Below are positions 2 through 40,339 of a DNA stretch of 64,000 bases, piece after piece. Below the pieces are notes generated by a model. The model did no database searches. It was given only the letters and a program-made list of their open reading frames with translations, and had not been told where the DNA came from. Position numbers and translations under genes: made by a program. The stretch is taken from assembly GCA_963823555.1 (NCBI GenBank), contig CAWGMA010000004.1, positions 384,001 through 448,000 on the forward strand, written 5' to 3'. The stretch is from Candidatus Eiseniibacteriota bacterium. Lineage in GTDB: Bacteria > Eisenbacteria > RBG-16-71-46 > CAVPCR01. How positions within the stretch are numbered: the first letter of the stretch is position 1; each line of letters opens with the position of its first letter.

Positions 2-2140
2 CTCATCCAGTCGAGCTTCACCGCCAACCGGGGGGTCGCGCAGTCCGTGGGCGCTTCCTTCCTGCTCAAGGGGTCGCCGACGTACTTGCATCGGCTCAGC
101 CGGTTCATGATGCAGAACTTCAGCTTCGGAGACTTCATCTTCCGGCTCCAAGACGGCACCGAAGTCGGCCGCGCCACCGATCTCAAGACGCTCGAGGAAC
201 TTCTGGGCAAGGTGCCCGCGGAGAGCCTGGGCTTTCACGGCGAACGAAATCACTTCTCGAACTGGCTCAAGGCGCGCACCGAGTTCACGCTTGCTGACAA
301 GCTCCGGCCGCGCAAGGTCTCGGACTTCGCCTCGCTCGAGGACCTCCGGCGGGACCTCATTCGCTCGATTCAGGAGTATCGCGAGGAACGGAACCGCGGC
401 ATTGTCGCCGACTTCGACCGCCATACCTTCGATGGCAGCGCGAGGTTTCTGCGCATCGGAGCCGGATCGCTCGGCGGGAAGGCGCGGGGACTCGCTTTCG
501 TCAACCGATTGCTCAACGACCACAACGTTGCGGCGCGCTTTCCCGACGTGGAGATCTCGGTGCCGCCGTCCGTCGTTCTCGGTACCGATGTCTTCGACGA
601 GTTCCTCGCCGCGAACGATCTCCGCGATTTCGCCATCGACAGCCCCGACCACGAGGAGGTGCTGGCTCGGTTTCTCGCCGCCAAGTTTCCTGCGGCCTAT
701 CGCGACGATCTCCGTGCTTTCCTCAAGCTCGCCCGCTACCCGCTCGCCGTGCGGTCGTCGAGCCTGCTCGAGGACTCGCCGTACCAGCCGTTCGCCGGGA
801 TCTACGCCACCTACATGCTGCCCAACAGCCATCCCGACCTCCAGGTCCGGCTGCGGCACTTGATCGATGCGATCAAGCGCGTCTACGCCTCGACCTTCTC
901 CGAGCAAGCCAAGTCCTATCTGCAGGCCACTCCCTATCGGCTCGAGGAAGAGAAGATGGCCGTCATATTGCAGAAGGTCGTGGGAGCGGCGCACGAGGAT
1001 CGCTTCTATCCCGATTTCGCCGGGGTGGCGCGTTCCCACAACTTCTATCCGACCCCGCCGATGACGACGGACGACGGGGTCGCCGCCGTGGCGCTCGGGC
1101 TCGGTGAGACCGTGGTGGACGGTGGGCTCTGCATCCGTTTCTGCCCGCGTTACCCGCAGCACCTGGTCCAGTTCTCATCGGTGAAGGACATTCTCCGCAA
1201 CTCGCAGCGTGAGTTCTATGCGCTCGCCCTGCGCGAGTCGTCCGGCAGCGCCCCCTCGCACGAAGCGTTCGAGCTCCGCCAGTTCGGGCTCGAGGCTGCC
1301 GAGTCCGACGGGGCGCTGGTCTGGGTCGGCTCGACCTATTCGCCGGAGAACCATGCTGTCTACGACGGCCTGTCACGAAGCGGCGTTCGCCTGGTCAGCT
1401 TCGCGCCGATCCTCAAGCATGGCTTGTTCCCCCTGGCCGAGATCCTCGATCTCATGCTCGAGATCGGCCGCGCCGGCACCAGCGGTCCGGTCGAGATCGA
1501 GTTCGCGGCGAATCTGTCGAAAGGCCAGGGGGAGCGCCCGGAGTTCGGCTTCCTCCAGCTGCGCCCCCTCGCCCTCAGCCGCGAGATGGCGGATGTCGAG
1601 ATCGGAGATGTCGATGCCACGGAACTCATCTGCCGGAGCTCCACCGTCCTCGGGCATGGCAAGATCGAGGATCTGCGCGACCTGGTCCTGGTCGACATCC
1701 ATCGCTTCGAGCGCGCGCGCTCGCAGGAGGTGGCTCAGGAGGTGGCTCGGTTCAACGCCGAGTTGACCGCGCGCGGTACGAACTACGCGCTGATCGGCGT
1801 CGGCCGCTGGGGTTCCGCCGATCCTTTCCTCGGGATTCCGGTGACCTGGGACCAGATCGCCGCAGCGCGAGTCATCGTCGAGGCCGGCTTTCACGATTTC
1901 AAGGTGACTCCGTCGCAGGGAACGCACTTCTTCCAGAACCTGACCACATCGCGCGTGGGCTACTTCACCGTCAATCCCGACGAGGGAGAGGGGTTTGTCG
2001 ACTGGGAGTGGCTGTCCAAGCAGCCGGCGGTTCGTGAGACGGACTTCGTTCGCCATCTCAAGTTCGCCGAGGCGATCGTGGTCAAGATGGACGGCAAGCA
2101 GAATGCGGGCGTGATCTTGAAGCCCAAGAGCCGGTCGTGA
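2..2140 (+). CDS. PEP/pyruvate-binding (PPDK_N, ATP-grasp) domain protein, 5'-truncated by window edge
   Basis: Frame is open from base 2. Motifs [32 protein letters not shown] and LQLRP match the PEP synthase N-terminal domain. C-terminal [11 protein letters not shown] is present. No PEP-binding TIM barrel. Confidence 0.85.
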   Translation, partial: LIQSSFTANRGVAQSVGASFLLKGSPTYLHRLSRFMMQNFSFGDFIFRLQDGTEVGRATDLKTLEELLGKVPAESLGFHGERNHFSNWLKARTEFTLADKLRPRKVSDFASLEDLRRDLIRSIQEYREERNRGIVADFDRHTFDGSARFLRIGAGSLGGKARGLAFVNRLLNDHNVAARFPDVEISVPPSVVLGTDVFDEFLAANDLRDFAIDSPDHEEVLARFLAAKFPAAYRDDLRAFLKLARYPLAVRSSSLLEDSPYQPFAGIYATYMLPNSHPDLQVRLRHLIDAIKRVYASTFSEQAKSYLQATPYRLEEEKMAVILQKVVGAAHEDRFYPDFAGVARSHNFYPTPPMTTDDGVAAVALGLGETVVDGGLCIRFCPRYPQHLVQFSSVKDILRNSQREFYALALRESSGSAPSHEAFELRQFGLEAAESDGALVWVGSTYSPENHAVYDGLSRSGVRLVSFAPILKHGLFPLAEILDLMLEIGRAGTSGPVEIEFAANLSKGQGERPEFGFLQLRPLALSREMADVEIGDVDATELICRSSTVLGHGKIEDLRDLVLVDIHRFERARSQEVAQEVARFNAELTARGTNYALIGVGRWGSADPFLGIPVTWDQIAAARVIVEAGFHDFKVTPSQGTHFFQNLTTSRVGYFTVNPDEGEGFVDWEWLSKQPAVRETDFVRHLKFAEAIVVKMDGKQNAGVILKPKSRS

Positions 2141-3000
2141 CCGACCGCTGCTACTTCGTTTCGGATCTGCATGGCCGGCGGGATCGCTACGAGAAGCTGT
2201 TTGCCGCCATCCGCGGCCGGCGGCCCGCGGGCGTGTTCCTCGGCGGGGACCTCCTGCCGTCAGGCGTCTTCCTCGCCGGAGGGGGCGCCGACCCCGAGGA
2301 CTTCGTCTCCGGCTTTCTCGCCGCCGAGTTCAGGAGCCTGCGCGCCGAGCTCGGCGCCGGCGCGCCGCGGGTATTCGTCATCCTCGGCAACGATGATCCG
2401 CGCCGCGAGGAGGAGGGGGTCCTGGCGGCCGCCGCCGCCGGGGTCTGGGAGTACGCGCACCAGCGCCGGACCCAGTTCGGGAGCCACCTCGTCCTCGGCT
2501 ATGCCTGCATCCCGCCGACTCCGTTCCTGCTCAAGGACTGGGAACGCTACGATGTGTCCCGGCACGTGGATCCTGGCAGCGTGTCGCCGGAAGAAGGATG
2601 GCGGACGACTCCCGCCGAGGCGCACGAGCTCAGATACGGCACCATCCAGAAGGACCTCGAGGCCCTCGCCGGCGCCGAGGATCTGTCACGAGCCGTGTGT
2701 CTCTTTCACTCGCCGCCCTACCAGACGCCGCTCGACCGCGCCGCCCTCGACGGCATGATGGTGGAGCACGTCCCGCTGGATGTGCACATCGGGAGCATCG
2801 CGATCCGCCGCTTCATCGAGTCGCGGCAGCCGCTCCTCACGCTGCACGGCCATGTGCACGAGTCGGCGCGCCTGAGCGGGGCCTGGATGGCACGCCTGGG
2901 CCGGACCGTTTGCCTCTCCGCGGCCCACGACGGCCCCGAGCTCGCCCTCGTCGAGTTCGACCTCGACGATCCGGCCGGGGCCGAGCGTCACCTGCTCTAG
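2137..3000 (+). CDS. Calcineurin-like metallophosphoesterase
   Basis: Motifs SDLHG, GGDLL, GNDD, FHSPP and HGHVHE. GTGA start/stop overlap with the upstream gene. Confidence 0.85.
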   Translation: MTDRCYFVSDLHGRRDRYEKLFAAIRGRRPAGVFLGGDLLPSGVFLAGGGADPEDFVSGFLAAEFRSLRAELGAGAPRVFVILGNDDPRREEEGVLAAAAAGVWEYAHQRRTQFGSHLVLGYACIPPTPFLLKDWERYDVSRHVDPGSVSPEEGWRTTPAEAHELRYGTIQKDLEALAGAEDLSRAVCLFHSPPYQTPLDRAALDGMMVEHVPLDVHIGSIAIRRFIESRQPLLTLHGHVHESARLSGAWMARLGRTVCLSAAHDGPELALVEFDLDDPAGAERHLL

Positions 3001-6000
3001 GTCGCGGGGCGGGCACCTGCGGGGCGCAGCGGCAGGAGCCGCGCCGGATCGGTCACGGCCCCGATCTTGGCGGCGTAGGAGTTGTGCTCGGCGATGTCCT
3101 CATCGGTGACGATATGGACATCGAGAATCCCGTCCACGCGGCAGCCGGTACGCAGGAAGTTGAACTCGGACAGGCACAGGCTCCAGCCGTCGAGCCAGGA
3201 GAGGAGGTCCTGTCTCTGCTCCTCCGTCCCGTCGAAGTGGACGAGGAGATCGATATCGCTCGCCGGTCCGGCGCTGGCGTTCTTGGTGCTGCCAAAGACG
3301 TACAGCGCCTTGACCCCGAAGCGGTCCGGATCCAGCCGCCCGGCGAGCCGCTCGGCGAACTGCATCCGCCACTTCCAGTGATTATCGGCCCGTGTCCGTT
3401 CCTCCTCCGCCCGGGCGTCGGTCTCCTCGGGGACTTCGGCGCGCGGCGCCAGGAAGGCGATGGCCTCGTCGAGGTTCGCGTTCATGAGGACGTGCATCAC
3501 CATCCCTTTCGTGACCCGCGAGACGTCGATCACACGTATGGTGTCGGCGAGAGCCGCGTACTCCGGGAGCAACTCGGCTAGGATGTTCGGCGAGCGGCCG
3601 AGGAAGGCCTCGTTGAAAACGATGCCAGGATCATCGGGATACAACGGTAGATAGCGGATCTCGGCCTCGACGAGATCCTGGAAGAAGTGGGTGCCGAAGG
3701 AGAGATCAGGCAGGTAGTTGCCCTTCTTGCGCGCCACCTCGATCAGGACGGATGTGTTGTTGATGTCCGAGTAGGTGACGTTGACCCCCATCTTGATGTC
3801 GCCCCGGCTCCCCCAGCGCCCCGGTCCGATCAGCACGAACTGGCGCTTGGGCAGGATCTTGTTGAGCCGCCCCACGGCCCGCCCTACGGCGCGCAGCTCC
3901 TCGATGGTTTCGAGCTCGTTGTAGTGATCGGGGTCGACATAGACGACGTGGGTGATGTTGTTGGCGCTTCCGTTCGAGATGAAGCGGCGGGCGGTGAAGA
4001 TGACCTGTTCGGGTAGCGTGTCGTGCGGGATCACCGCCGCCTTGGCCATGCGGCCCGAGCTCTGCGGCCGGCACTGGAGAAGATAGAGATCCTGCCCGTC
4101 CGAGGCGAACTCGATGTCGACCGGGGTCCCCATCTCGCGTTCGAGGATCTCGAGCATGGCCCGGATCTGGCGTACGAACGGGGTGGCGGTGGCGAGCCCC
4201 TCGAAGGTGAAGACCACGCGCTTGGGATCGAGATCCATCTCGCGCCCGAGCGGCCGGCGCACCCGGTCCTCCTCGAGGATCGAGATCATGTTGGCGAGCT
4301 GCGGGAGATCGGAGCCGACCTCGGCCAGGAACTCGTGCAGGGGCACGGTCTCGAAGGTCCCGTTCTCCATGTCGATGACGTCGATCTTGCTCGGTGAGTA
4401 TCGGACGATCTCGTCGAGGGTGACATTGACGCGGAGGTTCGGCTGTCCGGGAGCCATCAGCACCGGGTAGTCATCCCGCAGCCGGTCGACAGCACGGGTG
4501 CCCAGCCCCGGAACCAGGCGCAGGAGCCCATCGTCGCGCTGGATGCGGGCCGACCACCGGAACTCGTTGTGGCTGAACGCCACCCCGGAGAACGTGGGCA
4601 GGAAGTAGCGCCCGAGCCGCGTCCCCACCACCTCCTGCACCATGATCCCCATCTCCTCGTAGACATCGAGGAGGCCTCGTTCCATGCGGTACTCGATGGG
4701 GTCCGGGCCGAAGACCGAGGCGTACACCTCCGCGATGGCATCCATCAGAGCGGCCAGCCGCTCCTGCTTGGTGCCGATGTTGGCCAGGAAGAGGCTCTTG
4801 TACTTGCCGGAGAAGGCAGCATCGAAGCGGTCCTCGAGCAGGCTCGACGACCGGACGATGAGCGGACGACCCTCGAGATCGTCGAGGATCACCGCCAGGC
4901 CCTTGATCACTTCGGGCGAGAACATCGAGCTCTTGAAGATCTGGATGATGTGCGGGTACTCGTGCCGCACCTGATCCAGATCGGCGTACTTCTGGTTGTA
5001 GACGTCTTCCAGGTTGTTGTACTGGATGAAATCGATGACCCCGTCGGTGGTGAGGTACCAGCTGCGCGGGGTCTTGATCTCTCCCAGCTCGGGCGGCGGG
5101 TCTTTCAGGTTGCGCAAGATGGCCATGGCCAGGACGAGCCCGGATGCCTTCCCACCCAGCTTGCCCCGGCTCTTGGCCGGGAAGATCATGTGCTGAACGA
5201 TGTCGTAGTAGTCGCTGATATCGATGTGTCGCTTGGCGATGTTGACGTAACGAAGGTGATTGGTGAAGAAGTGGGAGATCAGGGACACGCGCAGGCCCTT
5301 CTGCACCGCTGGAGGGAACTCGATCTCCTCGGCCGGGATGTGGTGCAGGCGCCGGATGGCCTCGGTGACCTCGTCGAGGGAGGAATCGGGGTTGCCGACG
5401 GCATTGGCGAAGAAGCGGGCGCGGTCCTGGCGGATCCATTGCTGGATGCTGGAGAGGATGTCGTCCTCGCTCAAGTGGTTGGCCGCGATGGCGAAGGTAT
5501 CGTCCGTCATGTCGAGGAGTCGCAGCTTGCCAAATGACTCGCTCGGGCGATTGTCGTCGCCGGTCTCGACGTCGATGTCCTCCTCGGGTTCATAGACGAC
5601 CTGATGCAGCAGGTCGATGGCCTCAGGGATGCCGATCCAGCACAGGTGGTTGAGCATCTTGCGCGTGATGCGCAGCAGCAGTGTCTGATCGGTGCGCTTC
5701 AGGAAGTCGAGGATGATGCGCCATTGGCCGCGGGAGGTGGGTGATAGCTCGTGGCGGGCGGTTTCCAGGCTCTCGAAGGCGGTCTGCAGCTTCTTGTGGG
5801 TGAGGAAGTGACCCAGCCGATCGGCAATGGTGTCGATGAGCTTGCGCTCCTCCTTGAGGAAGGGCCCTTCATCAGCCTTCAAGGGCATCTCCCGGTAGTA
5901 GACCTCGAGGGAACCATGGCGTTCGCCGTCAACGGCGATGGGGGCCGACTGCACCCAGGGCGTCACCTGGAAATCCGGCGACTCGTGGGTCTGCCCGCCG

Positions 6001-6197
6001 TAGGTGATTCGCACCTGGCATATCTGCGAAAACTGGTAACCAGGGGGGATGGCCTGGATCACTCCGGAGAAGACCTCGGGGAGGGGAGTCTCGGTGTGTT
6101 TCAGGAACTCATCGATGCGATACAGGCAGTCGAGCTCCTTGGCCCTCTCCTGAAGTGCCTTGAGGACTCTCTCGATGGGGGTTTCCTGGGAAGTCAT
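2997..6197 (-). CDS. GAF-like + PPDK_N (ATP-grasp) + C-terminal nucleotidyltransferase fusion protein
   Basis: N-terminal sensor-like segment (ERAKELDCLY...EGPFLKEER). Core motifs [31 protein letters not shown] and SFGTHFFQDL. C-terminal YVFGS...SDIDLLVH is a Pol-beta-type NTase motif. Confidence 0.85.
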   Translation of the reverse strand: MTSQETPIERVLKALQERAKELDCLYRIDEFLKHTETPLPEVFSGVIQAIPPGYQFSQICQVRITYGGQTHESPDFQVTPWVQSAPIAVDGERHGSLEVYYREMPLKADEGPFLKEERKLIDTIADRLGHFLTHKKLQTAFESLETARHELSPTSRGQWRIILDFLKRTDQTLLLRITRKMLNHLCWIGIPEAIDLLHQVVYEPEEDIDVETGDDNRPSESFGKLRLLDMTDDTFAIAANHLSEDDILSSIQQWIRQDRARFFANAVGNPDSSLDEVTEAIRRLHHIPAEEIEFPPAVQKGLRVSLISHFFTNHLRYVNIAKRHIDISDYYDIVQHMIFPAKSRGKLGGKASGLVLAMAILRNLKDPPPELGEIKTPRSWYLTTDGVIDFIQYNNLEDVYNQKYADLDQVRHEYPHIIQIFKSSMFSPEVIKGLAVILDDLEGRPLIVRSSSLLEDRFDAAFSGKYKSLFLANIGTKQERLAALMDAIAEVYASVFGPDPIEYRMERGLLDVYEEMGIMVQEVVGTRLGRYFLPTFSGVAFSHNEFRWSARIQRDDGLLRLVPGLGTRAVDRLRDDYPVLMAPGQPNLRVNVTLDEIVRYSPSKIDVIDMENGTFETVPLHEFLAEVGSDLPQLANMISILEEDRVRRPLGREMDLDPKRVVFTFEGLATATPFVRQIRAMLEILEREMGTPVDIEFASDGQDLYLLQCRPQSSGRMAKAAVIPHDTLPEQVIFTARRFISNGSANNITHVVYVDPDHYNELETIEELRAVGRAVGRLNKILPKRQFVLIGPGRWGSRGDIKMGVNVTYSDINNTSVLIEVARKKGNYLPDLSFGTHFFQDLVEAEIRYLPLYPDDPGIVFNEAFLGRSPNILAELLPEYAALADTIRVIDVSRVTKGMVMHVLMNANLDEAIAFLAPRAEVPEETDARAEEERTRADNHWKWRMQFAERLAGRLDPDRFGVKALYVFGSTKNASAGPASDIDLLVHFDGTEEQRQDLLSWLDGWSLCLSEFNFLRTGCRVDGILDVHIVTDEDIAEHNSYAAKIGAVTDPARLLPLRPAGARPAT

Positions 6198-6243
6198 GGT
6201 CCCTCGCTCGCTCTGCCGGGGGTGCCGGCGGCATCGCCGGGCC

Positions 6244-8058
6244 TCACCCGGGCAGGAGGATCACACCGCGGCTCGTCCGGCCGTCCACACGGACTCGGAG
6301 CGGTGCCGGGAGCCGAACATGCCGCACCAGCTCGGTCTCCTTCACCGCGGGCTGGCGGGCGAGCCATGCCCAGTTGATGCCGAAGGCGCCGGTGTGTCGC
6401 ACGGTGAAGTAGCAGACACGGAAACTGGTCAAATTGTGGAAGAAGTGTGTTCCCTGGCTCGGGTCGGGGCTGGCCTCGGGCAGCGAGGATTCGATGATGA
6501 CCTTGGCTCCCGAGATCTGACTCCAGGCGACCGGCACCCCGAGCCAGGGGTCCGTGGATCCCCAGCGGCCGAAGCCGATGAGGAGATAGGGTCGCTTCTC
6601 CTCGCTCAAGTCGCGATCGATCTCCTCGATCTCGGCGGCGATCCGCTGCGTGTGCGTCATGGCGAAGGCCTCGGGGCGCAGGTAGACGACATCGCAGATG
6701 TTATCGACGGTGCCGTTTCCCAGAGCCGACTCCGAAGCGGTGAGGACATCGCCGCCGCTCATCTCCTCCTCCGTCACGGTCACGGTCTCGTCAGAGACCA
6801 CGAGCGGGCGTACCTGCAGGAATCCGAATCGCGCCGGCTCGGATGTGGAGTCAGGAAGCGTCACCGCGAATTCGATCTCCACCTCCGCGCCGAGCGCCCG
6901 CTCGCATTCTTCGAGGAGATGGCGCACGAGCGCGTTGAGCGGGTAGACCTCGACCGCGAGGAGCGGAGCGAAGGTGATCACTCGTGGCCCCGAGGGGCCG
7001 GTGCCGATCGAGAGTCGATCCGACTGCAGATCATAGGTCGAGGCGATGTGGCGTAGCGTATCGTCGCTTTCGGCGTCGGCCAGGGAGGCGTGGACCAGGT
7101 ACTCCACCTCGGTGGTCGGATCGTAGGCCGGCGGCTTGCCCATGTTCACGGCCCAGAACTCGCGCTGGGTCTGCCACATGAGCTCGCGGACCGTGGCGTA
7201 GGGCGGGTTCGCGCGCGGGTGGGCTGGCGAGTAGTTCCAGCCGATGCCGTCGTCGACGATCGTTCGCCCGAGCCCGAGGGCGAGGCTCACCACCCCGTCC
7301 CGGGGCCTGGCATGTCCGATCGGGTAGAAATTGAAAGAGCGCGCGACACCGGCGACCTCCGGATAGAAGCGCTCCTCATGGCGACGGCCCACCACCTCCT
7401 GGATGATCACGGCCATCTTCTCGTCGCGTACCGTGCTTGCGGTGGAACGGATGTAGGCCTTGGCATCGTGAAAGAAGGTGGATGCCCAGACGAACTTGAT
7501 CGCCTCGACCAGCTTGCGGAAGCGGGTGTCCGCGTCGATCTGGTTGTTGGGGATCATCTTGGTGGCATAGACGCCGGCGAACGGGCGGAACATCGCATCC
7601 TCGAGCAAACTCGAGGAGCGGATGGCGAGCGGTTGGTGCACGCTCTCGACCATGGCTCGCAGATCGCCGGCGATCTCGACCGGCAGGCTCGCTCGCTGGA
7701 AGGCGTGAGCGATGTGCGAGTCCGACTCGTTGGAGTAGGCGAGTTCCCGGAGCTTGTTGCCGTCGAGGAAGAGATCGAAGAGGTCGGTGGCGAGGACCGT
7801 CAGGCGGGGGATCGAGACCGTGAAGCCGGGCACATCCTGCCAGGCGCCGGGTGCGGCCAGGATTCGCTTGATGAAGGCGAGCCCTTGCGCCTTGCCCCCG
7901 ATCGACCCCGAGCCGATCACGGTGAAGTCCTCGCTCGAGCTGAAGAACTCCCGGTCGAACTGGGGGAAGTGCCGGGCTGCCGCCGGGGCCATGGGCTCCG
8001 GCGGGCTCGATCGGCGCGGATCGGGAGGCGATCCCGTTCCGTTCATGGCGCGCTCCAT
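6244..8058 (-). CDS. Stand-alone PPDK_N (ATP-grasp) domain protein
   Basis: Motifs [36 protein letters not shown] and [11 protein letters not shown]. Clear paralogue of 2..2140. Confidence 0.85.
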
Positions 8059-8072
8059 CGCGGCCGGACCGT

Positions 8073-9363
8073 CTAGATCCAGCCGCGGTCCTTGCAGGCC
8101 TGGGCGACACGGCCGATGGCGATGACGTAGGCGGCGTCGCGCATGAAGATCTTCTGCTTCCTGGCCACTTCACTGAACGGCGAGGAAGGCCGAGGTCATC
8201 TTGACGTCGAGCTCGACCCAGGACCTCGTCCTTCTCCCAGAAGTAGTTCATGTTGCTCTGCACCTGCTCGAAGTAGCTGCAGGTAACCCCTCCGGCATTG
8301 GCGAGGAAGTCGGGGATCAGGAAGATGCCCCGCTCCTGGATCACGCGGTCGGCATCGGGGGTGGTGGGACCGTTGGCGCCCTCGGCGATGAGCTTCACTT
8401 TGGGGCCGATGCGGTCGACGTTCTCGCTCGTGATCTGGTTCTCGAGGGCAGCCGGGATCAGGATATCGACATCCTGGGCGATCCAATCGTCGCCCGGCAG
8501 CACCTCGTAGCCCAGTGCGGCGGCCTTGGTCTTGTCGATGCCGCCGAAGCGGTCGCGTGATGCCGAGGAGCTGGTCGAGGTCGATGCCATCCTTGCGGGT
8601 GAACGAGTAGGACGTCTGGTCCTGCTGATCCCAGCAGGAGACGCAGGTCACCTTGCCGCCGATCTGCTCGTAGAGGCGTATCGCATACTGGGCCACGTTC
8701 CCGAAGCCCTGGACGCTGGCCCGCGTCGCGGCGGGGGCGATGCCGAGCTCCTTGAGCGCCTCGCGGATCGTGAAGACGACTCCGAATCCGGTCGCCTCGG
8801 CGCGTCCCAGCGAGCCGCCCATCCCCACCGGTTTCCCGGTGATGACGCCGGGATAGCGCCCGCGATGGATCGCACTCGTACTCATCGAGCATCCACAGCA
8901 TGTGCTGGGCGGATGTCATGACATCTGGCGCCGGCACGTCGATGACGGGGCCGATATCGCGCGAAATCTGCCGCACCCAGCCCCGGCAGATGAACTCCTG
9001 CTCATGGGCGCTCAGGTGATGCGGATCGCACACCACGCCGCCCTTGCTGCCGCCGAGCGGAATGTCGACAACGGCACACTTCCAGGTCATCCACATGGCC
9101 AGGGCGCGTACGGTGTCGATGGTCTCCTGCGGGTGGAAGCGCACGCCGCCCTTGCCGGGGCCGCGGGCGTCGTTGTGCTGGACGCGGAAGCCGCGGAACA
9201 CGTGCACGTTGCCGTCGTCCATGCGGACCGGGATGGAGAACGCATACTCCCGCATGGGAACACGCAGGAGTTCCCGCGAGGAGGCGTCGAGACCGATGGT
9301 CTCCGCCACCTTGTCGAACTGCGCCTGGGCAACCTGGAATGAGTTGTAAGCTTTCTCTCTCAC
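8073..9363 (-). CDS. gdhA: Glu/Leu/Phe/Val dehydrogenase (glutamate dehydrogenase), interrupted by four apparent 1-bp insertions
   Basis: GTG start after GGAGG. Motifs [48 protein letters not shown] and [10 protein letters not shown] are spread over successive frames. Removing insertions near 8874, 8556, 8212 and 8176 gives 428 aa ending RGWI-stop. Confidence 0.88.
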
Positions 9364-9761: not shown

Positions 9762-10775
9762 CTACTTGAGCTTCTTCGCCATCATCGCCGCCAGGTCGGC
9801 CGTGCGGCACGCATACCCCCATTCGTTGTCGTACCAGGCGACCAGCTTGACCATGTTGCCGAGGACGAGGGTGTCGGGGGCGCTGAAGGTCGACGATGCC
9901 GTGCTGCCGCGGAGGTCCGTCGAGACCAGGGGCTCATCGGTGACTTCGAGGATTCCCTTCATCGGGCCGTTGGCATACTCGAGCATCGCCTGCCGGATCT
10001 CGTCCGCGGTCGCCTCGCGCCTCAGGATGGCGGTGAAGTCGATGACCGACACCGTCGGCGTGGGAATCCGGAAGGCCATCCCCCCGAACTTGCCCTTCAG
10101 CTCCGGGATGACGAGGCCGACGGCCTTGGCGGCGCCGGTCGAGGACGGGACGATGTTCTGCGCCGCGGCGCGCGCGTCGCGCAGATCCTTGGCGCCGACG
10201 TCTTGCAGCTTCTGCGAGTTGGTGTAGGCATGGACGGTGGTGAGGAGCCCCTTCTCGATGCCAAAGCGGTCGTTCAGGACCTTGGCGACCGGAGCCAGGC
10301 CATTGGTGGTGCACGAGGCGTTCGACACCACATGGTGCTTGGCCGAGTCGTACATCTGATCATTGACGCCGAGGACCATCGTCAGATCCTCGTTCTTCCC
10401 CGGGGCGGAGATGATGACCTTCCTGGCGCCGCCGGAATCGATGTGGGCCCGGGACTTGGTGGCATCGGTGAACAGGCCCGTGGACTCGATGACGACCTCG
10501 ACTCCCATCTCCTTCCACTTGATGGCACCCGGATCGCGCTCCGCGGTCACCGTGATCGTCTTGCCGTCGATGACGATGTGGCCGTCCTTGGTCCCCACCT
10601 TTCCGGCGAAGGGGCCGTAGGTCGAGTCGTACTTGAACAGGTGGGCATTGGTCGCGGCATCGAAGAGATCGTTGACCGCAACGACCTGGAGCTCCTTGGG
10701 ATAGCGCTCGCTCATGGCGCGGAGCACGAGGCGTCCGATGCGACCGAACCCGTTGATCCCGATCTTGGCGGGCAT
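9762..10775 (-). CDS. gap: Type I glyceraldehyde-3-phosphate dehydrogenase
   Basis: [10 protein letters not shown], catalytic ASCTTN and [16 protein letters not shown] upstream. Confidence 0.97.
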
Positions 10776-11488: not shown

Positions 11489-14400
11489 ATGCGTGCCATC
11501 TCCCATGTTGTAGCGCGCCTTGGCGCCGGTGTCGTCGTGTCTCTCCTCGCCCTGGTTCTGATCCTCGCCGCTCCCGCGGCGACCGCCGGCATCATCGATC
11601 CTGCGTTCGATGATCATCTCGATACCTTGCCTGCGGATGCCAAGGTCTCGGTTCTCATCTACCTTGCCGATCAGGTTCCGATCGCCAGTCTCGATGCGGA
11701 GCTCAGGGCCGAAGAGGCCACACTCCCCGAGCGGCACGAACGCGTGATCACCGATCTCCGCGCCGTGGCCGAGGCGACGCAGGGCCCGCTCCGCGCCGAG
11801 CTCGAGGCTCGAAGGAGCACGGCCGCGGTCACCGACTACACGCCCTACTGGATCGCCAACCTGATCGTGGCCGAGATGACGGTCGCTGCGGTGCGCGAGA
11901 TCGCCGCCCGTCCCGACGTCGGCATCGTCTACGCCAACTTCACCGCCTCGCTCATCGAGCCGGTGGGCGGCACTCCCAAGGCCGACGATCCGGCCGGTGC
12001 CGGGCCTCAGGGCATCGGTGTCACGCCGGGTCTGCGTGCCATCAACGCGACACGGGTGTGGTACGAGCTCGGCATCAACGGCAGCGGCCGCCTCGTCGGC
12101 GGGCTGGACACGGGCGTCATGGGCACGCACGTCGCCCTTGCCTCGCGCTGGCGCGGCAATCAGGGTGGTATCCCCTGGCAGTGGGCCTGGCGGGACCTGA
12201 TCGGGACCAACACCACGACCCCCATCGACACCAACGGCCACGGCACCCACACCATGGGCACCATGGTCGGGCTCGGCGCCACCACCCAGGACACGGTCGG
12301 CGTGGCCTGGGCCGCGCAGTGGATCGCCTGCAACGCCATCAACCAGGGCGTCGGCAGCGCGTTCGACAATGACATCATCAATGCCTTCCAGTGGTTCGCC
12401 GATCCTGACGGCAATCCGCAGACCTCGAACGACGTGCCCGATGTGTTGCAGAACTCGTGGCGGATCAACGAGAACTTCCCGGGCGGCTACACGGACTGCG
12501 ATCCCCGCTGGTGGGCGGTGATGGATGCCCTCGAGGCCGCCGGCTGCGCGGTCGTGTTCTCGGCGGGCAACGAGGGGCCCTCCGCCCAGACCATCGGTTC
12601 ACCGCCCGATCGCATCACGACCCTCACCAACGCCTATGCGGTGGGTGCCGTCGACGCCACCAGCTTCCCGTTCCCGTATCCGATCGCGAGCTTCTCGAGC
12701 CGCGGACCCTCGGGATGCGCGGGGTCGACGCAGCAGCGCATCAAGCCGGAGGTGGTGGCTCCTGGCGTCACGGTCTACTCATCCACCAACAACGGCGGGT
12801 ACCAGCAGAGCGGCTGGAACGGCACATCGATGGCCGGCCCGCACGTGTCGGGCGTGATGGCCCTGATGCGGCAAGCCAATCCGAACATCGACGTCGTGAC
12901 CATGAAGAACATCGTCATGAGCACGGCGCGCGATCTCGGCACGGCGGGCGAGGACAACACGTACGGTTGGGGCGTCATCGACGCCTACGCCGCGGTGCGC
13001 CAGGCGCTCCTGTGTGGCACTCCGGTCGAGCTCGCCTCCGGGGTCAGCGCGCCGACGACCGCGCCGGCCAGCTACCACCGGTTCAACCAGCCGACGATCT
13101 ACTGGTCGGCGGCGGCGGTTCGCGGGGACGATCCGGCGGCTGACTACGACATCGGTGTCTACCAGAACGGGACCGGCGGCCCGGGCGATTTCTGCTTCAG
13201 CGGTCCCCTCGCCTCCTCGACCTACGTGGCCGGGACCACTGATTTCGTGATCGGGGACTTCAACCACAACCCGCTCGGCAACTACTACGTGCACTCCTAC
13301 CGTTACTCGGGGACCGGCAATGCCCGCACCGAGTGGGACAACGGCGCGGATCAGCTCGTCGTGAACGGGGCCTGGCCCCAGCGGACGACTGACGCCTCGG
13401 ATCTCATCGAGGTCTGGGATGTGTTCCTCGAGGCGGGGAAGACCTACTCCGTCTACTTCAACGGCTACGGTGCCAGCATGAAGCTGCTTCTGTACCGCAA
13501 TTCGGGGAGCACCTATTGGGTCTCGCGCAGCCTGCGGGAACTGGAGATGTCCTTCGGGGTGTCCACCTACACCCCGCCGGTGAGCGACTGGCACGGTTTG
13601 GTCGTGGCGAACGACGACGGCGGGACCGGCGCCTACGAGCTCGGTATCGGCGCCTGTGAAGCGCCGGTGGCCCTCGCGAGCGGGGTCAGCGTGCCGACAC
13701 CGCAGATCGCCGGTCTCTACAGCTTCAATCAGCAGGCCGGTTACTGGTCGGCGGTCGGTGTGCGGTCGGTGGGTTCCGACTGGGATCTCGGCGTCTATCA
13801 GAATCCGTCGGGCGGGAACTGGCCGGTCTGTCTCAGCGGCACTCTCGGGACGTCGACTCGGGTCGCGGGCGTCGACTTCGTGATCGGCGACTTCAACTCC
13901 GGGCAGAATCCGCTCGGCACCTACTATGCGAGCGCATATCGCTTCTCGGGGCCCGATGATGCGGTCACGGAGTGGGACGACGGCGTCGATGCGATCGGGG
14001 TGGGGAATCCTCCTCTCATCCGTACCACCGGTCCCGGCGATGTGCTCGAGGTCTGGGACGTGTTCCTCCTGCAGGGAACCGACTACGACTTCTTCTTCGA
14101 ACGGATCGGCGGCGGCGATACCAAGCTCCTCCTGTTCCAGAGCTTTGGCGGTGCCTACTGGACCGGACGCAACAGCGCTGTGTTCGAGACCGCGAGCCTG
14201 CACACGCCGTTCACCGCACCGGCGACCGACTGGTACGGGGTCGTCGTCGTCAACGACGATGGACAGAACGGGCAGTACCGCCTCGGCATCTCGCCGGCCT
14301 CGGCGGCGGTGGCCGACGGTGGCGCCGGCGCTCCGCCGGCGGCCACACGGCTGCGTCCCGTGGTGCCCAACCCGAGCTCGGGCGAGGTCCAGATCGGCTT

Positions 14401-14620
14401 CGATCTGGCGGAACCGGGTGAGGTGGATCTGACGATTCACGACGTCACCGGCCGCGCCGTGGTCTCACTGCCGGCGCGCACCTGGGGGGCGGGGAGCTGG
14501 GAGATGCGCTGGAACGGCAAGGACGCCGGCGGTCGCCCGTTGCCGGCCGGCGTCTACTGGGTGCGGATGGCGATTGGCTCCCGCGAGGTCGGGCAGTCGA
14601 AGCTCCTCCTCGTGCGCTGA
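11489..14620 (+). CDS. S8 (subtilisin-like) serine peptidase with propeptide, duplicated accessory module and FlgD-like C-terminal domain
   Basis: Signal peptide. Catalytic triad LDTG / HGTHTMG / GTSMAGPH. Tail PNPS...WNGKDAGG...GVYW. Confidence 0.9.
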   Translation: MRAISHVVARLGAGVVVSLLALVLILAAPAATAGIIDPAFDDHLDTLPADAKVSVLIYLADQVPIASLDAELRAEEATLPERHERVITDLRAVAEATQGPLRAELEARRSTAAVTDYTPYWIANLIVAEMTVAAVREIAARPDVGIVYANFTASLIEPVGGTPKADDPAGAGPQGIGVTPGLRAINATRVWYELGINGSGRLVGGLDTGVMGTHVALASRWRGNQGGIPWQWAWRDLIGTNTTTPIDTNGHGTHTMGTMVGLGATTQDTVGVAWAAQWIACNAINQGVGSAFDNDIINAFQWFADPDGNPQTSNDVPDVLQNSWRINENFPGGYTDCDPRWWAVMDALEAAGCAVVFSAGNEGPSAQTIGSPPDRITTLTNAYAVGAVDATSFPFPYPIASFSSRGPSGCAGSTQQRIKPEVVAPGVTVYSSTNNGGYQQSGWNGTSMAGPHVSGVMALMRQANPNIDVVTMKNIVMSTARDLGTAGEDNTYGWGVIDAYAAVRQALLCGTPVELASGVSAPTTAPASYHRFNQPTIYWSAAAVRGDDPAADYDIGVYQNGTGGPGDFCFSGPLASSTYVAGTTDFVIGDFNHNPLGNYYVHSYRYSGTGNARTEWDNGADQLVVNGAWPQRTTDASDLIEVWDVFLEAGKTYSVYFNGYGASMKLLLYRNSGSTYWVSRSLRELEMSFGVSTYTPPVSDWHGLVVANDDGGTGAYELGIGACEAPVALASGVSVPTPQIAGLYSFNQQAGYWSAVGVRSVGSDWDLGVYQNPSGGNWPVCLSGTLGTSTRVAGVDFVIGDFNSGQNPLGTYYASAYRFSGPDDAVTEWDDGVDAIGVGNPPLIRTTGPGDVLEVWDVFLLQGTDYDFFFERIGGGDTKLLLFQSFGGAYWTGRNSAVFETASLHTPFTAPATDWYGVVVVNDDGQNGQYRLGISPASAAVADGGAGAPPAATRLRPVVPNPSSGEVQIGFDLAEPGEVDLTIHDVTGRAVVSLPARTWGAGSWEMRWNGKDAGGRPLPAGVYWVRMAIGSREVGQSKLLLVR

Positions 14621-20800: not shown

Positions 20801-20942
20801 CTCCGGCTATCGTGCGCTGTGGGCCTACGTCGATTTCGTGCGCACGTTCGGGCTCTCGACCTGGGTCACGGATCAGGATCAGCTCGAGCAGCTCCTCCCC
20901 AAGCCGACCGGAATCGGGCGCTGGATGCGGAACGCGATCTAG
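17886..20942 (+). CDS. Large exported phospholipase D / cardiolipin-synthase-fold protein with beta-strand-rich N-terminal region
   Basis: HRKIAFYD (HxKx4D) followed by Cls-like GVGEHY...WDD...RGPA. Second half has AALRG, HLK and GSHNQNYRS. Signal-peptide-like N-terminus. Confidence 0.7.
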   Translation: MNGTSLGRRSAGAVCILLLMAFAAQGIVLADEGWVPPEEPDTKSMGFPRHWRPSVGAMLDWERRGPGSELGGEIHGAIYKDLINPATNVAGITGEGYATWVDDDTDGGLRLFLSSPAAMFHLGLDYSFGNDQVDFVFSLTPAFRRGGLFGLGDHLRIDWYPERDHSFMFGFGIPLEKNMGKTRPKAKKVTLPKKSGSPSDEIELAADVQNALENLDHAARWVQVYTAPFLDLEMGTDEKRLAAIQERIDAAKAHYHQQGDLYPAGHTAAAERAVYHQELERAFALAGAGDAAAHVAAEARAILLDQVFVPYNRLLGQRKERDSLLGYAADAERDFAAWLETTPEIAANKRPALAQVFHQVVRILDDCRELTHKRWEDSRLVWMSLDLVLQPEDHDSQGELDALLAKVVDEPFSDANDILYLKNELFQIELAKGVLAARDYHVLWIHDYRGLNAIKEPDRVAFLQTVQVYLRALTERVREFDQTKQLASYFIFLDQMYYEANQGQLWLALLADPLHHEVDLPEGYEDWEAEIESAQESLRAAVDSSAALSAGRELYGDDWLRNRVSVHVNITNPADVSFRSDDLAKYINFAPDLVMRDHRKIAFYDISELDPGRGAAIFTGEGVGEHYAGPTWDDRAMLVRGPAILGLKEAARDLLRSQGFKAEEIPAPFRAQALPDDYDLKLVALREKGWRATALQVHNVTGFGPKAATVAKAAQYNLMPAGSFLMIPDSLWNSTLWGSMLCGAALRGCQVAVVCPSLTNAPSDGLPQMSRTTELYTRFLLINREFGDELRAAGGSLHTGIYDHDVASGDHARSMRMLSENLARNAFLRQAFPFDDEVIAGLAAMADTLDAMGYSERHLAEDVLERKPKLHLKVQFMATREVIPNLAPRPEWLDFLREYTMVHVQQVEERGMPVDARGIREAIREPATALIENWWQGLTNEEREHAALYMTIGSHNQNYRSVIMDGEVLVAVSGYRALWAYVDFVRTFGLSTWVTDQDQLEQLLPKPTGIGRWMRNAI

Positions 20943-20964
20943 GTCGGGCCAGGAGCGAAGGCCG

Positions 20965-22284
20965 ATGTACTCATTCCCGCGGCGCCTCATCCTGCCCGCT
21001 GCGTTCCTCGCGGGTCTCCTCCTCGGCGCACTCCCTGCGCCGCCGGCGGCAGGCGGTGCGGGGTGGACCACGCTGCCCAATGCCCCGCCGGTGGGGGGGC
21101 ATGAGGACATCTTCTTCGTCAACCCCGATGTCGGCTGGGTGGTGAACGGGGCGGGAATGATCAATCGGACTACCGACGGCGGCGACAGCTGGGAGCTGCA
21201 GGATGACAAGCCGTCCTATCTGCGGAGCGTCGGCTTTGCGGACACGCTCACCGGCTGGGTGGGGAGCCTCGATGGCGTGCCGCTTCTCTATGCCACGACC
21301 GATGGCGGGGTGGCGTGGTCCCCGGTGCTCGATATCCCGGAACCCCAACCCACCGGGATCTGCGGTATCTGGGTCGTCAATCGATCGGTCGTCTATGCTT
21401 GCGGGAAATATAACGGCTCGTCGGCGCGCGTGATCAAAACCACGGACGGCGGATCGAGCTGGACATCCCAGGACCTGGTCCCGCTCGCCAACAGCCTCAT
21501 CGATTGCTTCTTCTTCGACGAGAATCACGGCTTCGTGGTGGGGGGGATCGGCCTCGGAGATGCCCGCCGGGCTGTGATCCTGGGCACCACCGATGGCGGC
21601 GCCACCTGGACCACGCGCCACACGACCGACCGCACCGCCGAGTGGTGCTGGAAGATCTCCTTTCCCACGGCGAGCGTGGGTTACGTCTCGATCGAGCGCT
21701 TCAACGGACCGACCTATTTCCTCAAGACCACTGACGGCGGCGAGACCTGGGAAGACCACCTCTTCAACAGCGCCTACATCGTGCAGGGCATCGGTTTCTC
21801 GACCCCCGACCTGGGCTGGATCGGTGGGCCGACCGGCCCCACCTACGAGAGCACCGACGGCGGCGAGACCTGGCAGCTGGCGGGGTTCGGCGTCCACATC
21901 AACCGCTTCCGCTTTCTCGGACCCTCGATCGGCTACGCCGCGGGCTCGACGGTGTACAAGTACACGACGAGCACCGGGATCGCCGGAGCGGCACCGCCGC
22001 CGCCGGAGCCCATCGAGCTCGCCCCGAACCATCCCAACCCGTTTCGGGGCTCGACCACGCTCTCCTACACGCTCCCTCGCGAGGCCGACGTCCGGATGAG
22101 CCTGGTCGACGTGCAGGGAAGATGGATCGCCACCCTGGTCGATGCCCATCGACAGGCGGGCACGCACGATGTGCGCTGGGACGGGCGGGACTCGAGCGGC
22201 CGTCCGGTAGGCGCCGGGATCTACTGGTACCGTCTGGAATCGGGTCGCCAGGTCGAGGCCCGGAAGCTGATGATCGTCAAGTAG
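20965..22284 (+). CDS. YCF48/BNR-repeat beta-propeller protein with FlgD-like C-terminal domain
   Basis: Six T/S-T-D-G-G-x-x-W repeats, signal peptide, and NHPNPF...WDGRD...GIYW tail. Confidence 0.85.
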   Translation: MYSFPRRLILPAAFLAGLLLGALPAPPAAGGAGWTTLPNAPPVGGHEDIFFVNPDVGWVVNGAGMINRTTDGGDSWELQDDKPSYLRSVGFADTLTGWVGSLDGVPLLYATTDGGVAWSPVLDIPEPQPTGICGIWVVNRSVVYACGKYNGSSARVIKTTDGGSSWTSQDLVPLANSLIDCFFFDENHGFVVGGIGLGDARRAVILGTTDGGATWTTRHTTDRTAEWCWKISFPTASVGYVSIERFNGPTYFLKTTDGGETWEDHLFNSAYIVQGIGFSTPDLGWIGGPTGPTYESTDGGETWQLAGFGVHINRFRFLGPSIGYAAGSTVYKYTTSTGIAGAAPPPPEPIELAPNHPNPFRGSTTLSYTLPREADVRMSLVDVQGRWIATLVDAHRQAGTHDVRWDGRDSSGRPVGAGIYWYRLESGRQVEARKLMIVK

Positions 22285-26065: not shown

Positions 26066-27448
<1,383 letters not shown>

Positions 27449-36599: not shown

Positions 36600-36886
36600 G
36601 GGGCGCCCCCGGACCGCTGGGACAAGCCGCGACCTCTCATCAGATGGACCCCCCTCTCGTTCTCCTGGTCGACCGCCAACCCAACCATAGCACCAGCCCC
36701 CGTCGCGCCGGTGCCGGCGGTGCGAGGTCCCACCCGGCCGGCATGGCCCTGTCCAGGCCTTCGATCGTCATCGTGTTGTGCTAAAATGTCCATGATAGCC
36801 GGGTCCCCCGTGGATAGTTAAGCGATTTCGATATAATGGGTTACGGGATTGCTCGCGCCATCCTGGCGGGAGCTGGGAGGTCAACC

Positions 36887-38917
36887 ATGGCGCGATGCTC
36901 TCTGCGGACGCCCCTCATCCTGGTTCTTCTGGCCTCCGCGCTCGCCCTTTCCGTCATCCCGGCCCAGGCTGCCCGTCGAATCGTCCTCTTCGAGGAGTCG
37001 ACCAACTGGGGTTGCCCGCCGTGCTACACCTCCAATCCGACCATCCATCAGTTCCTCGAGGATTACTCGGTGGCCCAGGTGGTGGCCGTCAAGTGGCACG
37101 TGTGGTGGCCGTCCTCCACCGATCCGTTCTACAACCACAACCAGGCTCCCGTGCAGACCCGGATGGGGTACTACGGGATCACCACTGCGCCTGATGTGAC
37201 CGTGGACGGCCGGAACGGGCCGATCCCCGGCTCCTACGGCAGCATGCAGACCTGGGTCGAGGACCGGCTCGCCCTCGAGAGCCCGCTCGCCATCTCCGTC
37301 ACCGGCGGCATCAACGGGTCGAACTTCGACGTCACGATCACCGTCGATGTCGAGCAGGTTCCCCCGGCTGGTGATTACCGGCTCTTCTGCATCCTCGGTG
37401 AGCACCACATCCATCTGCCGAGCCCCAACGGCGAACAGGACCACTATGATGTCTTTCGCCACACCACGAACAACTCGGGCGAACCCATCGATCTCAGCGC
37501 GACCGGCATCCAGGTCTTCAACCGGAGCCTGCCCTTCGATGCCAGCGAGACTCCCGACAACTTGCAGGTCGTGGCCTGGATCCAGAACTACAACACGCGA
37601 GAGGTCCTGAACGCCGGTACCACGTGGCCCAGGCCGGATTACTATCTCCGCCTCTCGGGCGGGACTCCGGGCGTGGTCGATGATCCGAACTCGGTCGCCG
37701 TCTTGACCCGTGATTTCACCAATCTGGGCACGCAGGACGATGTCTATGACATCACGATCGATCTGCTCACCACCCGCATTCCGCTGGAATGGAGCTGGGA
37801 GTACACGACGTCACAGGGAACCTTCAGCGGACCCAGCTCGCTCCCGATCACTGCGGATGCCACGGAGACCATGACGGTCAACATCGATTCACAGGGGGCT
37901 CCGGGTGGCGGCATGCTCGAGCTCGTCATGACCTCGCAGAACGATCCGACCATGGTGCGCCGGCAGCGTTTCTCCAAGATCTCCGGACCCACGGTGATCG
38001 TGGTCGACGATGACGGGGGGACCCACGACGAATCCATGCTGACCCTGAGTCTCGACGCCGCCGGCATCGGCTGGGGACTGTGGGAGGATGCCTGGGGCAA
38101 GCTGGATGGGACCCAGCTCTCGACGGCCCCCGCCGTGTTCTGGACCTGCGGCCTCTCCTATCCGACCCTCGACAGCCAGGATCGCCCGGCCCTCACCCAG
38201 TTCCTGGCGGGTGGCGGCAAGCTGTTCGTGACCGGCCAGGACATCGGCTGGGAGCTCAACACGTCGAGCAGCGGCAACTACGACCCGACCTGGTACCGGA
38301 ACAACCTGCACGCCAACTACGGTACCGATGCGGCCGGCCTCCTGCTTTCCGGGATCAACGGGGACCCGATCGGGAACGGGATCAACTACACCCTGAGCGC
38401 GCAGAGCCAGCCCTATCCCGACGGGATCAACCCCTACGGGACCGGCGCGGTCGCTGCGATCCAGTACAACGCCACCTACAAGGGAGTCGTGCGCTGGGAC
38501 GACGGCAACGCCAAGGTCGTCACCATGGGGCACGGCTTCGAGGGCATCACGGATCCGTCCGTCCAGATCACGCTCGTCCAGCGCATCATCGACTGGTTCG
38601 GCGTGGCCACCGGGATCCAGGTCGAGGAGTCGGCGCCGATCCGCCCGACCCTCGCCCAGAACTACCCCAATCCGTTCAACCCGACCACGGCGATCCCGTA
38701 TGCGCTCGCCCGCGAGGGTGAAGCGCGCCTCGTGATCTACGATGTGGCGGGACGCGAGGTGCGTGAGCTGGTGAGCGGCAGCCAGGTGGCCGGGTCGCAC
38801 GAAGCCATCTGGGATGGTCGCGATGATGCCGGCCGGCCGCTGGCCAGCGGGACCTACTTCTATCGTCTCGAGACTCCGGAGGTCGAAGCGACGCGGAGCA
38901 TGGTGCTCGTGAAGTGA
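36887..38917 (+). CDS. Omp28-like thioredoxin-fold secreted protein with FlgD-like C-terminal domain
   Basis: LFEESTNWGCPPC (CxxC), NLQVVAWIQN, and NYPNPFNP...WDGRD...GTYF tail. Confidence 0.75.
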   Translation: MARCSLRTPLILVLLASALALSVIPAQAARRIVLFEESTNWGCPPCYTSNPTIHQFLEDYSVAQVVAVKWHVWWPSSTDPFYNHNQAPVQTRMGYYGITTAPDVTVDGRNGPIPGSYGSMQTWVEDRLALESPLAISVTGGINGSNFDVTITVDVEQVPPAGDYRLFCILGEHHIHLPSPNGEQDHYDVFRHTTNNSGEPIDLSATGIQVFNRSLPFDASETPDNLQVVAWIQNYNTREVLNAGTTWPRPDYYLRLSGGTPGVVDDPNSVAVLTRDFTNLGTQDDVYDITIDLLTTRIPLEWSWEYTTSQGTFSGPSSLPITADATETMTVNIDSQGAPGGGMLELVMTSQNDPTMVRRQRFSKISGPTVIVVDDDGGTHDESMLTLSLDAAGIGWGLWEDAWGKLDGTQLSTAPAVFWTCGLSYPTLDSQDRPALTQFLAGGGKLFVTGQDIGWELNTSSSGNYDPTWYRNNLHANYGTDAAGLLLSGINGDPIGNGINYTLSAQSQPYPDGINPYGTGAVAAIQYNATYKGVVRWDDGNAKVVTMGHGFEGITDPSVQITLVQRIIDWFGVATGIQVEESAPIRPTLAQNYPNPFNPTTAIPYALAREGEARLVIYDVAGREVRELVSGSQVAGSHEAIWDGRDDAGRPLASGTYFYRLETPEVEATRSMVLVK

Positions 38918-38924
38918 GGCGGCG

Positions 38925-40214: not shown

Positions 40215-40339
40215 TTCGCTCGCCGCTGCCGTCTTGCTCTCGAGTTTCGCCCCGCGGCGCCAGCCGTCGCGGAGGACTCAATTGCCGCAGCCGATCCGAT
40301 GGCTCCGGCGCATTCCGATTCCGCGGAGGAGTACGACCG

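Follow-up and report, generated by a model that had tools for sequence, protein, structure and literature searches.

Glutamate dehydrogenase (GDH) joins carbon and nitrogen metabolism. It is controlled by direct protein binding in the case of GarA and of the GudB-GltAB counter-enzyme complex, and glutamine synthetase, at the ammonia-assimilation node, is subject to GlnE/GlnD, which combine a Pol-beta-type nucleotidyltransferase writer with a separate eraser activity. The nearest experimentally tested system to the one analyzed here is VadK (Rv1127c) of mycobacteria: this truncated pyruvate phosphate dikinase (PPDK) autophosphorylates His422 with ATP and Mg, co-precipitates the methylcitrate-cycle enzymes PrpC and PrpD, and tunes the flux of that pathway (PMC13400623). 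The sequence considered here is a stretch of 64,000 nucleotides from a Candidatus Eiseniibacteriota genome (G000:C4:384001-448000), called the window below. Its 5' edge cuts a locus, through the gene of paralogue A, in which two different gdh genes flank three related ATP-grasp proteins (paralogues A, B and C) and a phosphoesterase. This locus likely forms an undescribed chemical switch for GDH. The A/B/C system is real, widespread and, as far as our searches reach, uncharacterized: no description of the family was found in the literature searched, most subscription papers being beyond the reach of the search.

Two modules linked to glutamate dehydrogenase

The locus consists of two modules: gdhA and A form the first, and gdh2, C, B and a phosphoesterase facing B form the second, the order over the whole locus being gdhA > A > phosphoesterase >< B < C < gdh2. 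The gdhA gene upstream of A exceeds the PRK09414 cut-off. The gdh2 product, for which an intact relative was used, is 31% identical to GdhA and has its best matches among archaeal-type models, with scores under the cut-offs. The genes, gaps and overlaps described in the original prediction are real; it missed the nucleotidyltransferase of B, the second gdh and the larger extent of the locus. In particular, two paralogues do lie directly downstream of a gdh gene, with 14 nt between the gdh stop and C and 46 nt between C and B, and the convergent stop codons of the phosphoesterase and B overlap by 4 nt. The coupling of A with the phosphoesterase stands in part: the 4-nt start-stop overlap is present, but the arrangement is local, only 4 of the 30 B loci examined having the phosphoesterase immediately after A.

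The neighborhood of A was examined in the best 80 of 588 confirmed loci, obtained from 13 of the 64 parts of the GTDB collection and biased to close relatives (49-72% identity). A GDH is present in 68 of these 80 loci, and a family-I gdhA in 64. Where at least 600 nt are available upstream (70 loci), the gdhA stop lies less than 500 nt upstream of A on the same strand in 45 cases. Loci with gdhA near A span 11 lineages: Acidobacteriota, Bacteroidota, Ignavibacteriota, Chlorobiota, Calditrichota, Eisenbacteria, Krumholzibacteria, Zixibacteria, Gammaproteobacteria, Spirochaetota and Bdellovibrionota. Among 201 genomes sampled evenly from one phylum, a family-I gdhA occurs in 36/36 A-positive versus 31/165 A-negative genomes, a contrast inflated by kinship, related genomes not being independent. 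A-type genes are also found in 222 of the 251 genomes of a Bacteroidales-like order, and in all 81 genomes of the genus that includes the Bacteroides thetaiotaomicron proteins; in Parabacteroides distasonis and Phocaeicola massiliensis, A and gdhA are divergently oriented, and a Prevotella record has no gdh near A.

Module 2 was followed in 30 full-length or near-full-length B loci, several of them cut by contig ends: 27 contain C and 27 a GDH of any kind, gdh2 being found in 24; the phosphoesterase also occurs in 24 and is convergent on B in 23. The conserved linkage to gdh claimed in the original prediction is strong across genomes, holding for 37 of the 39 A loci with full 8-kb flanks and for 27 of the 30 B loci, and each subfamily keeps its own GDH class across phyla.

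Several variants of this organization were noted. The gdhA-A pair is duplicated in tandem in loci L024, L039, L044, L054 and L059; two GdhA clades are represented there, and a family-II gdh often comes next. The genome analyzed here carries a third GDH (G000:C1:2141678-2148290, locus L122), with a fourth, short B-type paralogue devoid of nucleotidyltransferase about 3.8 kb downstream, both frameshifted; short B-types adjoin gdh genes in L141 and L142 as well. In Parabacteroides distasonis (L143:9006-12217), an EEP-family phosphatase, a nucleotidyltransferase and a RapZ-like protein lie between the A-type gene and a second gdh, a set that is absent from the other Bacteroidales-like loci checked.

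Domains of the paralogues and of the phosphoesterase

All three paralogues contain the PPDK_N domain (PF01326), above the Pfam cut-off (E 1.5e-36, 9.1e-56 and 1e-32 for A, B and C), and neither PEP-utilizers nor PEP-utilizers_C matches any of them, as the original prediction had claimed. Genome-wide searches for the PF02896 barrel and for PF00391 gave 2 and 5 matches respectively and zero at this locus; both PF02896 matches sit on another contig, one within a complete PPDK. With no barrel at the locus and a complete PPDK elsewhere in the genome, the claim that these are not metabolic phosphoenolpyruvate (PEP) synthases is upheld. The structure model of C terminates in a 183-residue domain, and no substrate-binding domain of the RPH/PigC type was found between the ATP-grasp and the His domain, the latter directly following the former in A, B and C. 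The catalytic residues of the ATP-grasp are invariant in 50 A-type rows (Lys441, Arg532, Glu779, Glu781, Gln800, Arg802) and in 16 C-type rows (Arg147, Glu394, Glu396, Gln415, Arg417), and their equivalents in B are at least 90% conserved (25 rows). Core identity is 42% between A and C, and 28% for B against each of them. B separates cleanly in a tree of the cores, in which the family is unrooted and the outgroups stand on long, unreliable branches. The PDB holds no close family member (best E 1.5e-08), the nearest relatives of known structure being the small-molecule dikinases RPH and HpeI. Other PPDK_N proteins of this genome are located at C2:680962, C1:601724, C1:2154830 and G000:C2:665246-667705 (L125:5295-7754, minus strand), the last one being an 819-aa protein with an RPH-like order (ATP-grasp, middle domain, canonical swivel).

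The paralogues differ by their accessory domains. PF00072 matches two stretches of A (E 3.8e-08 for the whole protein). The second receiver possesses the acidic pair, the phospho-acceptor Asp, the Ser/Thr and the Lys of this domain: Glu181, Asp251 and Lys304 are invariant, and Asp182 and Ser285 at least 90% conserved, in 50 rows. Matches of the B N-terminus to GAF (PF01590) are weak (6 of 24 members, best E 0.00095), with no PDB match; this module is also found fused, in 1-3 copies, to the front of some A-type proteins (P0228, P0229, P0234). The nucleotidyltransferase of B is intact: PF01909 is above its cut-off, the Gly-Ser motif and the three acidic metal ligands of minimal Pol-beta enzymes are present (Gly969, Ser970, Asp981, Asp983 and Asp1026, each kept in at least 90% of 25 rows), and the Atlas score is 0.98. 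Of the 150 best clusters at 50% identity, 3 contain a C-B fusion; these fusions, like the domain content, catalytic residues, linkage and co-occurrence, are read from sequence and genome context.

The C-terminal domain of about 185 residues is common to A, B and C and contains a His that is invariant in 127/127 rows (His923, His837 and His538 respectively). PF00391 does not recognize it in any of the three. Its AlphaFold model (pLDDT 93) was compared with 48,161 chains by VIA: the His domain of RPH (5hv1) came first (Z 6.7, rmsd 3.2, 112 aligned residues), tied with DRTGG (Z 6.7) and followed by PPDK carriers (Z 6.5, rmsd 3.8 and 114 aligned residues for 2fm4; Z 6.2 for another), a pyruvate-kinase swivel (5.9) and enzyme I (5.8). 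Five of the top six matches are phospho-His swivel carriers, and the list is dominated by what we take to be swivelling beta/beta/alpha folds. In the model, the invariant His stands at the start of a helix, after a strand and a loop, presumably the same register as in known swivel carriers. The domain is probably a divergent swivel, because of this list of folds, the position of the His and the intact ATP-grasp directly before it. Taken alone, it is found in 2493 clusters at 50% identity.

A structural model also supports binding between A and GdhA. Residues 429-988 of A and 12-451 of GdhA were modelled together, with an alignment of 50 rows each, in three runs and with three controls. The pair scored 0.66 (runs 0.66, 0.59 and 0.66) against 0.00 for all three controls, with at least 66% of the contacts shared between runs and a partner pLDDT of at least 88; the mark applied to complexes is reached by 116 of 157 solved complexes and by 2 of 215 mismatched pairs, rates that are roughly applicable with our own alignments. 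Memory of a solved complex is unlikely since the PDB holds no close family member. In line with the action on GDH suggested in the original prediction, the core of A is predicted to dock through inserts of its ATP-grasp (632-684, 710, 729-753) on GdhA loops 67-69, 133-139, 168-172, 196-206 and 285-289, which we take to line the mouth of the cleft. These inserts diverge between A and C (5/23 consensus identities versus 51% over the core), as would be expected either if they are specific for different GDH classes or if they are simply variable surface. Conservation of the interface was considered as independent support for docking and gave none. Ser32 was likewise tried as a partner-specific acceptor on GDH (70/73 A-adjacent GDHs versus 7/31 from A-negative genomes); this residue is not part of the predicted interface and the groups compared cluster by phylogeny, so it is kept as a weak lead.

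The original prediction saw in the phosphoesterase an eraser of phospho-His and a partner of A. Neither part is supported as worded: the protein tracks B, and its residue pattern is of the diesterase-only type in 26/26 rows. The metal ligands are kept (Asp10, His12, Asp38, Asn85, His191, His239; Asp10 and His12 in 25 of 26 rows, one row being incomplete). In all 26 rows, Asp86 replaces the motif-III His and the motif-II Arg is absent (position 42), so that neither residue typical of calcineurin-like phosphomonoesterases is found. In CthPnkp, Arg237 and His264 are reported to be required for Mn-dependent monoesterase and not diesterase activity, and the diesterase-only MJ0936 and YfcE have no equivalents of these residues (PMC2190708). 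No solved relative of the phosphoesterase was found by sequence. Close phosphoesterases occur only with a nucleotidyltransferase-bearing B (13/13 among 41 relatives, 6/6 in the phylum sample), and G008, G015 and G133, where B has no nucleotidyltransferase, have no close phosphoesterase. It looks like a diesterase-only enzyme and a partner of B rather than A. Because of the diesterase-type residues and the co-occurrence with the intact nucleotidyltransferase of B, the simplest reading is that the two constitute a writer-eraser pair for a nucleotidyl mark, and not that the esterase is a phospho-His phosphatase. The gene immediately before the phosphoesterase in L129 and L136, at the place held by A in this window, is an A-like one that has strongly diverged (24-28% identity).

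Table 1. Features of the locus (window positions unless a contig is given)
Feature	Position	Strand	Remarks
gdhA, intact, NADP-type	C4:381613-382974	same as A	stops 184 nt upstream of A, beyond the window edge
Paralogue A, 3' part	2..2140	+	whole gene G000:C4:383159-386140, 993 aa; domain order: pseudo-receiver, receiver (Glu181, Asp182, Asp251, Lys304), DUF5752-like segment, ATP-grasp, swivel-like His domain
ATP-grasp (PPDK_N) domain of A	467..1591	+	holds the inserts with predicted GdhA contact (residues 632-684, 710, 729-753)
Swivel-like C-terminal domain of A	1580..2137	+	invariant His923
Calcineurin-like metallophosphoesterase, 287 aa	2137..3000	+	E 3.6e-08; predicted phosphodiesterase; travels with B
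Paralogue B, 1066 aa	2997..6197	-	GAF-like N-domain, linker region, ATP-grasp, swivel-like domain (His837), minimal nucleotidyltransferase
Nucleotidyltransferase domain of B	3024..3380	-	PF01909 E 5e-07; Gly969, Ser970, Asp981, Asp983, Asp1026
GAF-like N-terminal module of B	5778..6197	-	weak GAF matches
Paralogue C, 604 aa	6244..8058	-	ATP-grasp and swivel-like domain (His538); no sensor
gdh2, family-II (archaeal-like) GDH	8073..9363	-	four frameshifts; heads the gdh2-C-B unit

An Rfam scan of the 20-kb locus gave no match, and promoter and terminator scans of the locus did no better than chance. A GAPDH gene lies just upstream of gdh2 on the same strand (9762-10775, minus), with an enolase gene further on (26066-27445, minus). 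The plus strand at 11489-14620, 20812-22284 and 36836-41815 encodes several probably secreted proteins that carry FlgD-Ig domains at the C-terminus (subtilase, BNR-repeat, Omp28-like). Beyond the window, genes for subunits of a 2-oxoacid:ferredoxin oxidoreductase, possibly a 2-oxoglutarate enzyme, are situated upstream of and divergent from gdhA (L001:5807-8581) and are frameshifted.

Proposed mechanism and rival explanations

We propose that the three paralogues are dedicated GDH regulators, namely phospho-His carriers which pass phosphate to an acceptor at the GDH cleft; we hold this reading tentatively, at somewhat less than an even chance. The ATP-grasp domain would phosphorylate the His of the divergent swivel domain, the protein would dock at the mouth of the active-site cleft of GDH, and phosphate would go to an acceptor at the cleft, switching GDH activity. 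In module 1, A likely serves the NADP-type GdhA and would be gated by its phosphorylatable second receiver; in module 2, the likely regulator of the family-II gdh2 product is a single complex of C and B, gated by the GAF-like domain of B. A second reversible mark would be set on B itself, C or GDH by the nucleotidyltransferase of B, and taken off by the phosphoesterase acting as a phosphodiesterase. In this scheme the swivel fold and the docking of A on GdhA are predicted from models, and we infer the phosphorylation of the His, the acceptor, the sign of the effect and the target of nucleotidylation.

Several observations weigh against this scheme. For the His domain, all VIA Z values are below 8, a range that may mean merely a common arrangement; Foldseek on the single domain gave no match at E<=0.001, its profile showed no similarity to known swivels in the PDB, and hhalign and HMM comparisons with four swivels from this genome showed none either. 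In the docking model, His923 is outside the confident interface, and the model gives no transfer to GDH; conservation in A is lower at the interface than in the core (0.53 versus 0.63), and on the GDH side it is about the same whether or not the enzyme has a partner. The same complex test, applied here to the A-GdhA pair, was also passed by blind gene neighbours in 7 of 44 cases. In Bacteroidales-like genomes, a gdh lies within about 7 kb of A in only 11 of 20 loci, picked mainly for long contigs; in one genus of this group, linkage holds in 16 of 20 loci, with an often divergent orientation. On the side of the esterase, G033, G149 and G165 have a nucleotidyltransferase-bearing B and no close phosphoesterase, and 11 relatives devoid of full-length B carry distant phosphoesterases (34-42% identity). 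Finally, gdh2 in the window carries four frameshifts, near 8872, 8555, 8213 and 8175. These are likely assembly indels, because neighbouring housekeeping genes of this genome are frameshifted too and 19 of 20 related gdh2 genes are intact frames of 424-428 aa, the same-genus one being also broken. The gdh2 pieces are 82-92% identical to an intact relative. None of the public contigs checked for these breaks spans the gene; related contigs, mostly from other organisms, differ by single bases at 8216 and 8557, positions that coincide with two of the breaks.

Some of the same evidence can be read differently. The proteins might be autophosphorylating sensors of ATP or of a signal, whose phosphorylation state sets their binding over the cleft, GDH being inhibited or activated sterically and never modified. 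We regard this as unlikely, though it has to be reckoned with: the predicted interface covers the cleft mouth (GdhA 133-139, 168-172, 196-206, 285-289) through ATP-grasp inserts and not through the His domain, and for VadK the sections consulted show autophosphorylation and co-precipitation and no transfer to a target, but an invariant His on a mobile carrier that has no acceptor domain of its own suggests an external acceptor, and for module 2 the presence of a nucleotidyltransferase and an esterase suggests covalent chemistry. A two-component small-molecule dikinase, in which GDH is the substrate-binding subunit and phospho-His phosphorylates a GDH-bound ligand (for example NAD(H) at 2', glutamate or 2-oxoglutarate), so coupling ATP to the GDH reaction or altering its cofactor pool, would agree with the type of the closest solved relatives, RPH and HpeI, and with a predicted docking site that takes in what we take to be cofactor-cleft loops. 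It is improbable in our view, as the receiver, the GAF-like input and the nucleotidyltransferase suit regulators better and family-I GDHs without a partner keep the same cleft residues.

The flow could also run in reverse, with GDH as the sensor and the paralogues as atypical histidine kinases relaying phosphate from His to Asp, on the A receiver or on other regulators. The second receiver of A does retain Glu181, Asp251 and Lys304 in 50/50 rows and Asp182 in at least 90%; since receivers are missing from B and C, and the domain searches of A gave no DNA-binding output domain, we give this a slight chance. A still smaller one goes to mere co-regulation, the proteins being nitrogen- or carbon-related kinases with another target, such as the 2-oxoacid:ferredoxin oxidoreductase encoded divergently upstream of gdhA, and not touching GDH. 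The absence of a nearby gdh at 2 of the 39 fully flanked A loci and at 9 of the 20 Bacteroidales-like loci speaks for it; the constancy of the GDH class of each subfamily across phyla and the docking model, which passed, speak against it. That the genes encode an ordinary PEP synthase or PPDK, possibly split, as the source annotations ('phosphoenolpyruvate synthase', 'PEP/pyruvate-binding domain') would have it, is hardly credible: no barrel exists in the proteins or near the locus, PF02896 matching on another contig, and the NCBIfam scores of the paralogues are at most 65 bits against cut-offs of at least 456.

The phosphate-transfer scheme may be extended to a widespread covalent GDH cascade parallel to GlnE/GlnD, in which GDH is phosphorylated, nucleotidylation by C-B is erased by the phosphodiesterase, and the A-type protein is a trans-acting factor of B. 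thetaiotaomicron reported in 1996; this larger picture is speculative, and we think it rather unlikely as a whole. The factor is said, in the title of Baggio and Morrison (1996), to be encoded downstream of gdhA, reportedly on a segment of about 3 kb. Locus L206 encodes a 444-aa GDH identical to DHE3_BACTN of B. thetaiotaomicron, presumably the enzyme of that work. It is followed by a catalase gene, a convergent A-type gene (2.1-5.1 kb from the gdh stop) and a second GDH at 5.4 kb; a 3-kb piece starting at the stop would hold the catalase and just part of the A-type gene. All three are candidates for the factor, and the case is a lead, not support. The A-type gene is a concrete one, testable in a tractable gut commensal. 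If the phosphate-transfer scheme is true, GDH would be under an ATP- and signal-driven switch, and a dikinase His carrier would act on a protein partner, a role so far known mainly from VadK. Databases label A-type genes as PEP synthases or leave them unnamed, so that many annotations would have to be corrected.

Comparison with known systems

The binding of GDH, predicted here, would be shared with GarA and with glutamate synthase, but these belong to unrelated families, GarA being an FHA protein and A, B and C being ATP-grasp/His proteins. With GlnE/GlnD the locus has in common a nucleotidyltransferase writer and a separate eraser at the ammonia-assimilation node; it differs in its putative target (GDH or its regulator), in a minimal transferase fused to a dikinase core, and in an eraser which would be a free calcineurin-like esterase. 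The catalytic ATP-grasp and the probable swivel-type His carrier recall RPH (5hv1), PigC/RedH, HpeHI, PEP synthase and PPDK; unlike these enzymes, A, B and C have no barrel or small-molecule domain, and they carry signalling domains and are tightly linked to GDH. The phosphoesterase resembles YfcE and MJ0936 in having no equivalent of CthPnkp Arg237 and a residue other than His at the position of His264 (PMC2190708); it is distinct from them by the Asp at the latter position, and its diesterase activity is a prediction. The likeness to VadK (PMC13400623) is that of an ATP-binding domain and a His domain without a barrel, an arrangement found in C and in the cores of A and B. Unlike VadK, the three paralogues score best on PEP synthase/RPH/PigC models and have weak or no matches to the short PPDK models PRK05878 and TIGR01828, only B touching PRK05878 (E 0.0028). 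They further differ from VadK by a His domain that escapes PF00391, by their receiver, GAF-like and nucleotidyltransferase domains, and by their partner, which would be GDH.

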